Shown here: positions 1-4,797 of the stretch, piece after piece | How the letters are laid out: every line of letters starts with the position of its first letter | How positions within the stretch are numbered: the first letter of the stretch is position 1 | Source of the DNA: Dictyostelium discoideum | Taxonomy: Eukaryota | Assembly (NCBI GenBank): GCA_000004695.1 | Contig: CH709174.1 | Location: 1-5,179 of the forward strand | DNA length: 5,179 bases | Reading direction: 5' to 3' | Position numbers and translations under genes: made by a program | Notes under the pieces: generated by a model | What the model was told of the DNA's origin: nothing | Seen by the model: the letters and a program-made list of their open reading frames with translations, nothing else | Database searches by the model: none

Positions 1-163
1 TTGTCTCCTCAAAAAGCCCGAAGTAGTCGGTGGCTAACCACAGCCCAACTCACCTTTTGCTCAGGATTTACCCTAAAGGCTATTAACTTTATAACCTCAT
101 CTTTGAGTGCGATTAGCTTTCCTTTTAAACCAGCAAGCTTTCTTGGGGAGCAACAATCTAGTT

Positions 164-955
164 TTAAAAGTTTCTTATTTCCTTGATGACACTTTTCTTC
201 TTTTCTTTGGGAACAAGAAGCTTCATTGATTTTGAATCGATTTGTAATCCGAGAAATGTAATTGATTGAGTTGGTTCAAGAACAATCTTTTCTAGATTCA
301 GCTTGAAACCTAGTTTGACAAGTAAGTCCATTGTCTTTTTGAGGTTGGATAAACATTCTTCTTTTGTTGAACCGACGATTAATAGATCGTCCAAGTAAGC
401 GATTACGGACACGTTGATATCTCTCAACATTCGAAGTACATGTCTTAACAACATTGTAAAGATACGAGGAGCTGTCGATAACCCGAACGGCATTGTTTTC
501 CAACGGTAGTGCGAACCTTTCCACACGAAGCGGAATAAGTCTCTGTATTGCGGATCTACTAAAACGTGGAGGTAGGCTTTCTTGATATCGAGTTTTACCA
601 TGTAATAACCTTGTTTGACCATTGATGGTAGATTCTTGATTCCTTCCATCTTGAATGATTGGTTGTTGATGTAAGTGTTTAACCTTTTTAGATCGAGAAC
701 TGGACGATGTAGATTCGTTCCAGGTTTTGGAACCGTAAACACGTTGGAGTAAAAAACGCGCTTTGAATAACGGTTTGGAAGTACTTGTTCGATAGCATCG
801 TCTAATAACAAGTCTTGTACTTCCTTTGTGATGCAATCTGATTTCGGACCCTCTGGAATTGAAATCGGAATTGGGTTTGGCATCGGCTTGAAATTTGGAA
901 GTAAATGGATTTTTAATCCATTTACGACCTCTTGACAAAAGTTTGGAAGACCCAA
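164..955 (-). CDS. Reverse transcriptase domain of a retroelement pol ORF. RT blocks 1-7 are all present. The ORF ends at a premature stop (KEIRNF*) and the reading continues in another frame below position 164.
   Basis: The translation contains the canonical RT motifs FTVPKPGTNLHRPVLDLKRLN, KLDIKKAYLHV, MPFGLSTAPRIFT, the YXDD box VIAYLDDLLIVG, LVKLGFKLNLEK and ITFLGLQID. The frame differs from the upstream gag-like ORF, which is the usual gag/pol frameshift arrangement. Confidence 0.85.
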   Translation of the reverse strand: MGLPNFCQEVVNGLKIHLLPNFKPMPNPIPISIPEGPKSDCITKEVQDLLLDDAIEQVLPNRYSKRVFYSNVFTVPKPGTNLHRPVLDLKRLNTYINNQSFKMEGIKNLPSMVKQGYYMVKLDIKKAYLHVLVDPQYRDLFRFVWKGSHYRWKTMPFGLSTAPRIFTMLLRHVLRMLRDINVSVIAYLDDLLIVGSTKEECLSNLKKTMDLLVKLGFKLNLEKIVLEPTQSITFLGLQIDSKSMKLLVPKEKKKSVIKEIRNF

Positions 956-1005: not shown

Positions 1006-2007
1006 TTACTTCTTGTTCTTCTGAAAACGGTTGTTGGTACCGTTGGCAGACTTGGTATTGTTGCTACCTGATGCAACATTACTTGGTGACCCATTGAAGT
1101 TGTTAGATCGGCCATTACTCCCACTACTGGATTTACTATTACTACTGTTTCCTGTAGTGTTATTACCACTTGAGTTAACTGATTTCTTGACATTGGACTT
1201 GGAATGATAATTCAATTTTAAAAATGATTGTTTAGCTTCGTTGTTCTTTCTGATTGACTTGGCTAGCTTTCTTACACGTTCAGTTTCAGTTTCATCAAAC
1301 ATCTTTGGTGTATCCTTGATCTTAATTGGTAAGAGTACTTCAGAACCATAGATTTCTTTAGCGATGTTGTTACGACGGACACGACTAAGCGATGCTTGAG
1401 CATTAACGGCTAAGATGATTGCACTCTGAGTTAAGTAACTAATAAGTTCTACATCGACATTAGAGCTATCAGATGATAACATACTTGATATGAGAAGCAA
1501 AGGTTTTAAGCTATCGTTGATTCGCTTTTCGACAATCAACAAGTCAGTATCATTGTTCTTGACGTTGGATGATACAGTAATACCTTCAGGTGTACCGAAT
1601 GGAGCGACATTCACTTGGAAGTTAGATGGAAAGTTGAATACTTTATTCAATTCGGATATCTCATCTTTCTTGAGGATACATTCTTCTTCGACGAGTAAAC
1701 CTTGATTGTTAACCATATGTTTGTACTGACCAAGTAAGGTATCGGATAATTGATAATCGGTTGGAACATCGACATTGTTACTTGATTCATCTTCACTTTG
1801 TTCATTCTCGGTGTCAGAGTTATCATGAGAAGGTTGGCTACGTGAATTAGATGAGAACATAGGTTCTTTCATGAATCTTGTAAAGGCTAAGGAAAGGTTG
1901 TTGATTTGATCCTCCATTGATTTCATTCTTAAATCAAAGGATTCAGAACTATTAAAGGCAGAGGTACTACTACTAGAGGCTTCATTATTATTAACAGTGG
2001 TAGACAT
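1006..2007 (-). CDS. Gag-like ORF1 of the retroelement. It has no CCHC zinc knuckle and ends in an Asn/Ser/Gly-rich low-complexity tail.
   Basis: A 333-aa ORF lies immediately 5' of the RT on the same strand, in a different frame. Its C-terminus is basic and low-complexity (NSSGNNTTGNSSNSKSSSGSNGRSNNFNGSPSNVASGSNNTKSANG...RFQKNKK). This composition is typical of dictyostelid proteins, and the absence of a CCHC motif is consistent with a DIRS-type Gag. Confidence 0.6.
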   Translation of the reverse strand: MSTTVNNNEASSSSTSAFNSSESFDLRMKSMEDQINNLSLAFTRFMKEPMFSSNSRSQPSHDNSDTENEQSEDESSNNVDVPTDYQLSDTLLGQYKHMVNNQGLLVEEECILKKDEISELNKVFNFPSNFQVNVAPFGTPEGITVSSNVKNNDTDLLIVEKRINDSLKPLLLISSMLSSDSSNVDVELISYLTQSAIILAVNAQASLSRVRRNNIAKEIYGSEVLLPIKIKDTPKMFDETETERVRKLAKSIRKNNEAKQSFLKLNYHSKSNVKKSVNSSGNNTTGNSSNSKSSSGSNGRSNNFNGSPSNVASGSNNTKSANGTNNRFQKNKK

Positions 2008-2099: not shown

Positions 2100-2220
2100 A
2101 TCTTAAATATTTATAGGAGGAATTCCCAAATAAAATAAATCAAATTGTTTTAGTTTTTAGTGCCACTATTTATACGTTTTATTTTCTTAAAAATTTCGCA
2201 AAACTCAAAAAAATAAGTGT

Positions 2221-2326
2221 TTTCGACCCTTCACAACTTTGTGCATTGTGTCGGTTCGGAATTTTTATTTTTTTCGACCTTGCACAATTATCGCGTCATT
2301 GTACCGGTTCGAAATTTTTACTTTTC
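2221..2326. repeat. Two tandem, imperfect ~52-bp repeats within the putative terminal-repeat region
   Basis: tttcgacccttcacaactttgtgcattgtgtcggttcggaatttttattttt is followed by tttcgaccttgcacaattatcgcgtcattgtaccggttcgaaatttttacttttc, with roughly 80% identity. A third partial start, tttcgaaaa, follows at 2326. Confidence 0.8.
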
Positions 2327-2348
2327 TTTCGAAAATTTTTTATTCTTC

Positions 2349-2366
2349 GAATGTTCTAGAACATTC
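2349..2366. promoter_or_regulatory. Perfect 18-bp palindrome gaatgttctagaacattc, which is four contiguous alternating nGAAn/nTTCn pentamers (a heat-shock-element consensus array)
   Basis: Read in 5-bp units, cGAAt gTTCt aGAAc aTTCt gives four consecutive perfect pentamers. The site lies ~340 bp upstream of the retroelement ORF1 start on the minus strand. Confidence 0.7.
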
Positions 2367-2389
2367 TAAAAAATTATCTTAAATATTTG
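2349..2389. repeat. Left copy of a 41-bp inverted repeat (IR-L)
   Basis: gaatgttctagaacattctaaaaaattatcttaaatatttg matches the reverse complement of 4403-4443 at 39 of 41 positions. Confidence 0.9.
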
Positions 2390-2587
2390 GGAAATTCAAA
2401 TAAATAAATGTTATTCATAATATATATATATATGATAATATAAATTCATAATCTGAAGCCATTACAACCCATTATTGATGAACTTTCTAAGAAGCACTAC
2501 AGTAAGTAGTTCTTTTTGACAAAGGTCTTCGATAATATGAAATACCAAGGGATTTTTCTAGGTTCGTTTAATTAAAGAGGACCTATC

Positions 2588-2692
2588 ATGCAAAACACCA
2601 ACGCGGAAAAACTTCAACAAGAAGTATATCAGCATTCGAATATTAATTCATGCGACCCACCAAACTTACTAAATAGACTCCGGCTTCCTTGA
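2588..2692 (+). CDS. Small 34-aa ORF (MQNTNAEKLQQEVYQHSNINSCDPPNLLNRLRLP) preceded by a strong Shine-Dalgarno-like motif. Function unknown.
   Basis: AAAGAGGA at 2574-2581 lies 6 nt upstream of the ATG at 2588. The ORF sits upstream of the ATP-grasp-like ORF. It is too short to appear in the ORF track. Confidence 0.3.
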   Translation: MQNTNAEKLQQEVYQHSNINSCDPPNLLNRLRLP

Positions 2693-2809
2693 GTCGTTTA
2701 GCCAGCGTGATTGATTATATCCGTCAATACGAAGCAAAAACCGTTGCGTAACTATTTGGTCAGAGTGGGAAAACAGCTCTGACTTTATGCCAGCCTATGG
2801 AGTAAAGTC

Positions 2810-3298
2810 ATGAAAATCATTGTACAAGCACATGGCACAAACGTATACCATCGGGAAGAACAAAAAGTCCATGATTATGTTAAAGACTTTATTCCGTTGG
2901 GTTTATCGCAGCTAAAAAAGAAAACTGATCTCATTGAATCCGCCGTTTGGTTATGTGAGGTCGTGGAGTGGGGTAGCGAATGGCAGTTCTACTTACAGGA
3001 TGATGTAGTTGTCTACAAGGCACCGTATAAAGGAGCCACAAAACCAGACATCCGTATTGTAGATGACATGATACAGAGGCTCCAGTACTGTTCTACTGGA
3101 CCTAATACCTACGCTTTAGATGTAGATGTACTAAGTTCAGGTAAAACTGCATTAATAGAAATGAATGATGCATTTGCTGTCAGCGCCGAGACATTCCCGC
3201 AGACATCTATACTGAATGGTTATTCTCTCGCTGGAATTCGTAAATGGCGTAATCCAGGAGTTTTCAGGTCTACATCATCAAGGTGTAGATGTGAATAA
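2810..3298 (+). CDS. ATP-grasp fold protein (C-terminal catalytic-domain-like), 162 aa. It may be a truncated or short ATP-grasp ligase.
   Basis: The segment YALDVDVLSSGKTALIEMNDAFAVSAE resembles the conserved ATP-grasp C-terminal motif (..GVDxx...G...vlEvN..P..), and it is preceded by an E..R-containing beta region. GGAG lies 7 nt upstream of the ATG. The stop codon of an upstream reading frame overlaps this RBS. Codon usage is enterobacterial or phage-like. Confidence 0.55.
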   Translation: MKIIVQAHGTNVYHREEQKVHDYVKDFIPLGLSQLKKKTDLIESAVWLCEVVEWGSEWQFYLQDDVVVYKAPYKGATKPDIRIVDDMIQRLQYCSTGPNTYALDVDVLSSGKTALIEMNDAFAVSAETFPQTSILNGYSLAGIRKWRNPGVFRSTSSRCRCE

Positions 3299-3330
3299 AA
3301 CCCCCTGTAATAACTGAAAAAGGAAATACC

Positions 3331-3624
3331 ATGTCCGATGTAATCGCACAACAAAACCAACATGCTGTTCAGCAGTATCCAAATGAAATTCCATCAGGAA
3401 TTACATTGTTCATCGAGTTTGTTCATAGCGCTCTGGGAAATCTGCAAGAGAAATCCTTGCTGCCGGACCTGGTACCCACTACTCGCGGTGTAGTCGTTCG
3501 TCAGGAAAACCAAAACCCACTGAATACGTTGTCTGCGGTTGCCCCAACCGTCCTGAACATTTACGGTAACCAAAGGCCATCGCCCTGTGTGAATGCCGCA
3601 CCGCATCTGCTCTATCTGGCCTAA
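3331..3624 (+). CDS. Hypothetical protein, 97 aa. The same frame stays open through two in-frame TAA codons as far as 3930, so this may be a nonsense-interrupted pseudogene or a longer gene.
   Basis: AAGGAA lies 5 nt upstream of the ATG. Codon choice is strongly ctg/ccg/cgt/gcc. The frame continues open from 3625 to 3780 with the same codon bias after the TAA at 3622-3624. Confidence 0.45.
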   Translation: MSDVIAQQNQHAVQQYPNEIPSGITLFIEFVHSALGNLQEKSLLPDLVPTTRGVVVRQENQNPLNTLSAVAPTVLNIYGNQRPSPCVNAAPHLLYLA

Positions 3625-3852
3625 GATCTGCTGTGTACCGGTCTGATCGATGCCGAGTGTTTAGCGCTGTATAGCCCGATTCAAACCAACAACACCATCC
3701 CAATACGTTCCCGTCATGCCAAACCTGACTGGATTGTACTGCAGAGTCCAACTACGAAGAACTTATCAAAACTTATCAGGTAACTCAGGACTCTCCGTTC
3801 CGTTAAAATAACTTTATTGCAAGGATTGAAAAAGCTTGATCTTAGTTTAGTT

Positions 3853-4242
3853 ATGGCGTTAGTATTCATGGTTACTGGTTTCGCTACTGATATCACCCAG
3901 CGTGTAGGCTGTGGAATCGAACACTGGTAGTAACTATTTCTCTACAACAACTCAAGGCGAAGAAGTTGCGATCGAGTGTTTGAATAGTACAGTCGTTGCA
4001 AGTATCACTTATGCAGACGGGCGCACCCTCTAAAGGTGATCCTATTGGGGTCTACACGGAAAATGGTGTCTTTGTCTTATCTTGCAAATCGCAGTCCGTT
4101 GCAGTTCGTAAACAGTTCTGGGGATATTATCCAGTCTGCTAAAGGACAATTGCAATTTGCAAGTACCGTGGGTGAGTCCTGCGTGTATTCAGCAACCAGT
4201 CTAGGAAAGTTATTTAAAGACATTGGCTCTAACTGTAATTAA
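3853..4242 (+). pseudogene. Possible decayed gene for a small secreted, Cys-containing protein. A signal-peptide-like N-terminus is followed by short ORFs in successively +1-shifted frames.
   Basis: The sequence (L)KKLDLSLVMALVFMVTGFATD... resembles a signal peptide. Four ORF segments of ~100 nt each (ending at 3930, 4033, 4142 and 4242) run in frames 1, 2, 0 and 1 with plausible peptide sequences, for example GDPIGVYTENGVFVLSCKSQSVAVRKQFWGYYPVC. Overlapping open frames could also arise by chance at this GC content. Confidence 0.25.
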
Positions 4243-4402
4243 CCATTAAGCCGCTCCTTAATTGGGGCTGCTGTTTCACTTGAGGTTATTTTTTATGTTC
4301 TCACACATTGTGGCCATGCACCCTACCTTTATCAATTTCAGAAATCGAAGCGGTTATTGGTCAATATCGTGTTTGCGTACTGTATAACTTTGCCTCTGGT
4401 GA

Positions 4403-4443
4403 CAAATATCTAAGACAATTTTTTAGAATGTTCTAGAACATTC
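4403..4443. repeat. Right copy of the 41-bp inverted repeat (IR-R). Its outer 18 bp (4426-4443) is the same HSE palindrome.
   Basis: The reverse complement of 4403-4443 is gaatgttctagaacattctaaaaaattgtcttagatatttg, which differs from 2349-2389 at 2 positions. Confidence 0.9.
4426..4443. promoter_or_regulatory. Second copy of the perfect HSE palindrome gaatgttctagaacattc
   Basis: aGAAt gTTCt aGAAc aTTCa gives four perfect pentamers. It is identical to 2349-2366. Confidence 0.7.
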
Positions 4444-4459
4444 AAAAAACACAGCGGCT

Positions 4460-4498
4460 TTATAAGTATACTTTATAAGTACTACTTAATAAGTACAC
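4460..4498. repeat. Three tandem ~13-bp units (tttataagtatac / tttataagtactac / ttaataagtacac)
   Basis: The units are seen directly in the sequence. Confidence 0.8.
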
Positions 4499-4536
4499 TT
4501 ATTAATATATATTAATAATTAATTATTATTCTTTAA

Positions 4537-4652
4537 AATGTTTTATATGTGAATTGAACCCGCGACCTCCCTTTTCAGAAGTTCCGAGGTGGGGAATGTT
4601 TTATATGGGAATCGAACCTGCGACCTCCCTTTCCGGAAGTTCCGTTTAGAGG
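4537..4652 (-). repeat. Two tandem 58-bp units, each containing a tRNA 3'-half or B-box-like motif (GGTTCGATTCC on the minus strand). They resemble extra-B-box elements downstream of a tRNA.
   Basis: Units 4537-4594 and 4595-4652 are ~85% identical. The reverse complement of each contains GAGGTCGC(A/G)GGTTC(G/A)ATTC, which matches the T-arm/B-box consensus GGTTCGANTCC. Each unit also carries a GGAAgTTCC inverted repeat. Confidence 0.6.
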
Positions 4653-4660
4653 AAAAAAGT

Positions 4661-4728
4661 TGCATATGGGAATCGAACCCGTGACCTCTTAAATTAAGCT
4701 ATCTCTCTACCATATGAGCTAAATAAGC
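4661..4728 (-). pseudogene. tRNA-derived pseudogene or tRNA-like element. It is followed on the minus strand by T6, a Pol III terminator-like run, at 4654-4659.
   Basis: The minus-strand reading is GCTTATT TA GCTC ATATGGTA GAGA ... CTTAA T TTAAG AGGTC ACGGG TTCGATT CCCAT ATGCA. The D-arm TAGCTCATATGGTAGAG (A14, G18G19 and A21 present), the variable loop AGGTC and the T-arm are all tRNA-like. The anticodon loop is reduced to 1 nt, the acceptor stem does not pair, and the total length is ~68 nt, so this is not a functional tRNA. Confidence 0.5.
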
Positions 4729-4797
4729 TTTTATTATTTTTCAATATTAATAGCTGAAATATTAATGTAAAAAATTTAAAAAAAATAATAAAAAAAA

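Follow-up and report, generated by a model that had tools for sequence, protein, structure and literature searches.

Two heat-shock-element palindromes on an unplaced Dictyostelium discoideum contig are very probably pieces of DIRS-1 terminal repeats

The window analyzed here is an entire 5,179-bp contig of Dictyostelium discoideum AX4 that is not placed on a chromosome. On the minus strand, positions 98-2445 represent the 5′ portion of a DIRS-1 retrotransposon and share 96-97% identity with several DIRS-1 copies from other assemblies. Next to this element lie a foreign, phage-like segment and a short scrap of DIRS-1 LTR, and an 18-bp palindrome composed of heat-shock element (HSE) units is found both in the left LTR and in the scrap. 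The features of the window are as follows.

98-955, minus strand: DIRS-1 reverse-transcriptase region (Pfam RVT_1, E = 4.7e-28)
1006-2007, minus strand: DIRS-1 ORF1 (GAG), 333 aa, with 97-98% identity to many D. discoideum DIRS-1 ORF1 proteins
2135-2445, minus strand: complete left LTR/ITR of DIRS-1 with its outer terminus ...GATAATATAAAT at 2445 (94-96% identity to the LTRs of loci L002 and L003, in both orientations)
2167-2174, minus strand: TATAAATA box of the core promoter of the LTR, in its longest invariant run (2154-2196); going towards ORF1, the box follows the HSE after about 175 bp
2349-2366, no strand: four-unit HSE, a perfect 18-bp palindrome in the DIRS-1 left LTR (exact match, conserved LTR position)
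2446-4402, plus strand: foreign segment of phage-like character (1,957 bp, 42% GC) whose ORFs are prokaryote-style (GC profile, no DIRS match)
2810-3298, plus strand: truncated R2K-clade ATP-grasp gene, DDB_G0294348 (Pfam R2K_2, E = 4.4e-16; R2K_3, E = 2e-11)
4403-4449, plus strand: orphan scrap of a DIRS-1 LTR in inverted orientation to the left LTR, with a secure core at 4403-4443 (41 nt; local alignment to the LTR)
4426-4443, no strand: second 18-bp HSE copy, in the LTR scrap, which lacks the LTR core promoter (exact match, local alignment)

The assignment of the left LTR follows from its alignments. Positions 2135-2452 align to repeats in both orientations, including opposite-orientation repeats at the other ends of elements, which identifies this stretch as an LTR. 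In L002 and L003 the repeats matched by 2135-2445 adjoin ORF1, RVT_1 and Phage_integrase genes, so that the window sequence corresponds to the repeats that flank elements with GAG, RT/RNase H and tyrosine recombinase. A multiple alignment placed the same terminus in five other left LTRs with unrelated flanks; the terminal base is common to every copy and the flanks diverge directly after it, as expected for a canonical outer terminus. At its other end the element is incomplete. DIRS-1 homology breaks at about 97/98, within the reverse-transcriptase region, and BLAST alignments to DIRS-1 copies all end at 91-98; no DIRS-1 copy matched positions 1-97. With 44% GC, this terminal stretch resembles the foreign segment in composition, unlike the AT-rich right end of the contig.

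Scanning the whole window located the 18-mer GAATGTTCTAGAACATTC at 2349-2366 and 4426-4443 with zero mismatches, and matches to it were absent from all 200 dinucleotide-preserving shuffles of the window. The initial annotation, which had reported identical four-unit palindromes at these two places and a strong consensus of the heat-shock factor type, was correct on both points. Together with one base on either side, each copy reads cGAAt gTTCt aGAAc aTTCt, i.e., four contiguous alternating nGAAn/nTTCn units. Taking an HSE to be at least three contiguous alternating nGAAn units in exact 5-bp register, both sites exceed this with four perfect units. The generic four-unit pattern GAANNTTCNNGAANNTTC has the same two sites and no others in the window, against an expected number of 0.00. 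The 18-mer is its own reverse complement and thus a perfect palindrome. An origin of its TCTAGA core in a cloning site or adaptor was considered and rejected, since the 18-mer occurs in LTRs of independent assemblies.

Within the 311-bp left LTR, the palindrome lies 79 bp from the outer end (2445) and 214 bp from the inner end (2135). To see it in other copies, we compared 17 near-full-length LTRs from four loci, two of them in GCA_054883475.1, one in GCA_054859385.1 and one in the D. cf. discoideum assembly GCA_054859205.1. Of these, 15 contain the 30-nt block TTCTTCGAATGTTCTAGAACATTCTAAAAA unchanged and at the same LTR position, including five D. cf. discoideum LTRs whose overall identity is only 89%. 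The other two near-full-length LTRs have one mismatch in the block, and decayed forms occur in old LTR fragments. Four-unit HSE matches are present in four loci of D. discoideum and D. cf. discoideum, and every one of them lies at the HSE position of an aligned LTR. The initial annotation had assigned the 18-mer to the DIRS-1 terminal repeat and had named its absence from such repeats elsewhere as a reason to doubt a function; this absence did not occur. The outer half of the LTR is conserved throughout within D. discoideum, so the HSE is not a uniquely conserved island. Outer half and TATA region (2154-2196) are about equally invariant, with the longest invariant run in the latter. The part of the LTR that varies most between strains is a tandem duplication of about 51 bp at 2214-2315 (TTTTCGACC...GGTTCGRAATTTTT), which is single in the LTRs of D. 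firmibasis, D. citrinum and D. dimigraforme.

The second palindrome has a different setting. Positions 2343-2389 pair with 4403-4449 in an inverted repeat of 47 nt with 91% complementarity, in which 43 of 47 positions match and all four differences are transitions. One of these transitions creates TTAGAT, a variant that is also present in LTRs of the strain locus L009. Aligning the reverse complement of 4200-4760 to the LTR returned the same 47 nt with a score of 39 under loose scoring (maximum of 100 shuffles, 21), and the inverted repeat did not extend beyond 47 nt even with this scoring. The six outer bases of the scrap match the LTR at four positions only, in an A-rich run, and LTR similarity stops essentially at the palindrome edge. 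The scrap covers 47 of about 311 nt of the LTR and has neither the LTR terminus nor the TATA region. Some 200-300 DIRS-1 fragments have been reported for the genome (PMC3950715), and small LTR fragments also occur in L009; judged from its alignment, the right copy sits in an orphan LTR scrap consistent with this background. The right palindrome reads identically despite the inverted orientation of the scrap because the 18-mer is self-complementary. Since the left LTR runs beyond its palindrome in both directions, the inverted repeat is just the overlap between a whole LTR and a short scrap. Directly to the right of the scrap (4460-4500), a TTATAAGTA(C) motif is repeated three to four times in tandem-like fashion.

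We conclude that both palindromes are very probably pieces of DIRS-1 LTRs, the left one being the HSE of the published heat-shock promoter and the right one part of an orphan scrap, and that neither marks the end of a cargo-carrying unit. Sequence identity, positions, conservation and orientation were established here; that DIRS-1 responds to heat and that its LTR promoter fires inward are published findings. [quoted passage not shown] The left LTR drives a 4.5-kb mRNA and the right LTR a long antisense RNA, a 900-nt antisense transcript is induced by heat shock or stress, and in LTR-GFP reporters activity was obtained only from the right LTR in its forward, inward orientation (PMC3950715). 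The fixed LTR position of the 18-mer in 15 of 17 other LTRs links it to this published element. On the basis of LTR position and consensus, the 18-mer is best read as the mapped DIRS-1 heat-shock promoter, and it is most likely a putative binding site for heat-shock factor.

The left copy is well placed for such a role. It is located in the promoter region of the element, upstream of a core promoter that it could activate: about 175 bp separate it from the downstream TATAAATA box, which D. firmibasis and D. citrinum have retained as well, and 342 bp from the downstream ORF1 ATG (2007, minus strand). The initial annotation had given a distance of about 340 bp and had considered the site a possible promoter of the element; this is right, and already known from the 1984 work. 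Heat-shock factor trimers would bind the left 18-mer, and under heat or other stress the occupied HSE would raise transcription inward into DIRS-1, towards ORF1. The same LTR sequence in the right LTR of an element would drive the antisense and heat-shock transcripts. As an instance of the DIRS-1 (Tdd-1) ITR heat-shock promoter (Zuker 1984, Cappello 1984, as described in PMC2685390), the site at 2349-2366 shares organism, element and repeat with the known system and shows no difference from it, lying upstream of the LTR TATA box and ORF1. The copy at 4426-4443, in contrast, is in a scrap of 41-47 nt without the remainder of the promoter; lacking an LTR core promoter to act on, this scrap is probably inert.

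Canonical eukaryotic HSEs are arrays of alternating nGAAn units, among them the Pelham box CTnGAAnnTTCnAG. The window 18-mer resembles them in its four contiguous perfect units and matches nine of the ten specified Pelham positions on each strand. It differs in being a perfect palindrome located in a retrotransposon repeat instead of a chaperone gene promoter. A comparable arrangement occurs in Arabidopsis, where ONSEN (ATCOPIA78) is a heat-activated LTR retrotransposon with HSEs in its LTRs. In ONSEN, as in DIRS-1, a site of the heat-shock factor type in a transposon repeat couples transcription of the element to heat stress. However, ONSEN belongs to the Ty1/copia elements and has LTRs in direct orientation and a DDE integrase, whereas DIRS-1 has inverted repeats and a tyrosine recombinase, and the HSEs of the two have independent origins.

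The initial annotation went further and considered the palindromes as a pair of heat-shock promoters, each bidirectional and placed at one boundary of a unit, through which heat or stress would induce the 2-kb cargo between them from either end. Two perfect copies of the 18-mer do flank the segment, and a symmetric element could bind its factor either way round. Their position at the outer edges of the inverted repeat was accurate in so far as they begin 6 nt inside the edges of the 47-nt repeat, but these edges are not unit ends. The left LTR continues 56 bp inward and 208 bp outward of the left arm of the repeat; the left copy is internal to the LTR, the segment begins 79 bp further on, at the LTR terminus, and the right copy belongs to a scrap of 41-47 nt, so the two copies do not bound a cargo-carrying unit. 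Both LTR pieces turn their outer side to the segment, and the LTR promoter fires inward only (PMC3950715), which means that the promoter direction points away from the cargo on both sides. TATA-like strings are present in the AT-rich sequence beside each copy, but the scrap has no conserved TATA region, and bidirectional induction of the cargo is not supported. The flanks TTTTTTA and CACAGCG show no target-site duplication, no transposase domain was found in the ORFs of 2446-4402, no further copies of this segment occurred in any collection searched, and a second instance of the arrangement was not found in these collections either. The enclosed genes, described below, are prokaryote-style and no longer intact, with 87 aa deleted, one frameshift, one stop codon in frame and a stretch whose coding sequence is divided among three frames. 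We consider heat-inducible cargo between paired promoters very unlikely. The DIRS-1 reading also carries a caution, as a self-complementary repeat motif mimics matched inverted boundaries whenever a scrap of the element is near.

The segment between the two LTR pieces differs clearly from its surroundings. Its GC content is 42%, compared with 24% in the LTR and 16% in the AT-rich right end of the contig, it has no DIRS match, and its ORFs are preceded by Shine-Dalgarno-like strings as read from the sequence. The only identifiable ORF encodes the R2K ATP-grasp protein, from a family found in bacteria and tailed phages (PMC4431377). The translation of this ORF (2810-3298) matches 'hypothetical protein DDB_G0294348 [Dictyostelium discoideum AX4]' with 100% identity, and a partial gene, DDB_G0294346, is on the same contig. 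The nearest relative of DDB_G0294348 is a protein of 235 aa (P0002) on a Logan contig; in comparison, 87 residues are missing from the middle of DDB_G0294348, and its frame shifts near 3187. The ORF at 3331-3624 (97 aa) continues in the same frame for 53 codons past a single TAA (3331-3789). Among 1.8 billion representative proteins it has no homologue apart from a spurious repeat-protein match; two HMMER matches were dismissed as artifacts of a repeat protein scored seven times. At 3911-4242, the reading frame is split over three frames. The supposed cargo is decayed phage-like DNA and not a functional payload.

Relatives of the segment are scarce. Its only close relative is a Logan contig (L001), in which the R2K gene has 62-65% amino-acid identity and the neighboring genes are not shared; L001 itself is phage-like, with PHROG families in five of its seven genes. 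In tblastn searches the segment matched jumbo phages at just 28-41% identity, and its DNA had no match in phage, plasmid or E. coli genome collections. Pattern scans of IMG/VR, GTDB genomes and JGI metagenomes, including a scan with the degenerate pattern YALDVxVLSSGKTAL, returned no relatives, and exact look-ups of the ORF proteins of the window found them on no other contig.

The right flank has some peculiarities of its own. Three direct repeats, 58-61 bp apart, occupy 4537-4705, and each contains a string resembling a tRNA T-arm or B box (GGTTCGATTCC or GGTTCAATTC). A tRNA gene at 4537-4735 was rejected, as ARAGORN and Rfam find none and only these T-arm/B-box-like strings are present. The repeats may be remnants of tRNA genes or solo B boxes of the type that TRE retrotransposons are known to target. 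The contig tail (4979-5179) consists of A/T runs of 9-31 bases (31 T, 23 A, 16 A, 11 T and 9 T) with short G runs between them. Base-calling after polymerase slippage typically produces such a tail, which suggests that the sequence is untrimmed and of low coverage.

The juxtaposition of DIRS-1 and phage-like DNA may not exist in the genome. Contaminant phage-like DNA could have been joined to DIRS-1 sequence by chimeric cloning or by misassembly of a low-coverage contig, in which case the two HSE copies are not genomic neighbors. This is a serious possibility that falls somewhat short of being probable. The contig is 5.2 kb long and unplaced, and its last 200 bases are homopolymer-ridden and look of low quality. 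On the other hand, the left junction coincides exactly with the canonical terminus of the DIRS-1 LTR, where a random chimeric join would be expected in about 1 of 1,000 cases, and Dictyostelium-type sequence on both sides would need two such joins. Within the protein collection, the R2K protein comes from this contig only and is missing from the other D. discoideum assemblies and from the Logan runs. Gene organization in the segment is purely prokaryotic, and its GC content of 42% and GC3 of 0.36 equal those of L001 (41% and 0.36), the relative with PHROG families in most of its genes, with no drift towards the 24% of the LTR or the 16% of the right end. Yet the genes are disrupted, which is unexpected for DNA of a live contaminant, and the E. 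coli, phage and plasmid collections gave no match.

If the segment is instead genuine AX4 nuclear DNA, phage DNA would have been captured recently in a DIRS-1-rich, centromere-type region, followed by integration of DIRS-1. This order of events would leave a canonical LTR terminus abutting the segment, which would now be decaying between two LTR-derived HSEs. We regard such a history as possible but rather unlikely, and assign what remains to mixed scenarios. The identity of the palindromes is the same whether the segment is real or an artifact. A real insertion would be a rare documented case of DNA transfer from phage to amoeba, into a retrotransposon cluster. For the reference gene set, DDB_G0294348 is either contamination to be removed or evidence of a recent insertion of phage DNA.

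Three sister species, D. firmibasis, D. citrinum and D. dimigraforme, were sampled for their DIRS-1 LTRs at one locus each (L005, L006 and L007). Neither the 18-mer nor an array of at least three units occurs in these LTRs, and the inner TATA region and the outer 90 bp or so are kept in all of them. At the corresponding place, D. firmibasis has the two-unit GAAaaTTC and D. citrinum the degenerate GAATGTCGTTTCGGCATTC. The lack of the HSE in three sister-species LTRs indicates that it is inessential for propagation of DIRS-1 in general.

These comparisons also bear on a different function, in which the palindrome is primarily a site for the DIRS-1 tyrosine recombinase, with 7-bp arms around a CTAG core, and the orphan copy is an old recombination breakpoint. 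The usual form of a tyrosine-recombinase site, a spacer between short inverted repeats, counts for this possibility. The end of LTR similarity approximately at the palindrome edge on one side of the orphan copy (four of six further bases matching, A-rich) would fit a breakpoint, although one at the edge and not in the core. DIRS-1 does prefer to insert into DIRS-1 sequence, but the accepted model joins the element at its LTR termini and an internal complementary region (PMC3950715). Moreover, the retention of the terminal 90 bp in sister-species LTRs without the palindrome is hard to square with an essential site. We therefore give a recombination site hardly any credence.

Read as the HSE of the DIRS-1 LTR promoter, the palindrome re-identifies a 1984 result, and the main value of the finding lies in correct annotation and in caution. 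The distribution among LTRs suggests that the four-unit HSE is a lineage-specific gain in D. discoideum DIRS-1, as judged from a small sample with one locus per sister species. The HSE is apparently confined to the D. discoideum lineage; a centromeric retrotransposon would then have gained stress responsiveness in an event that can be dated.
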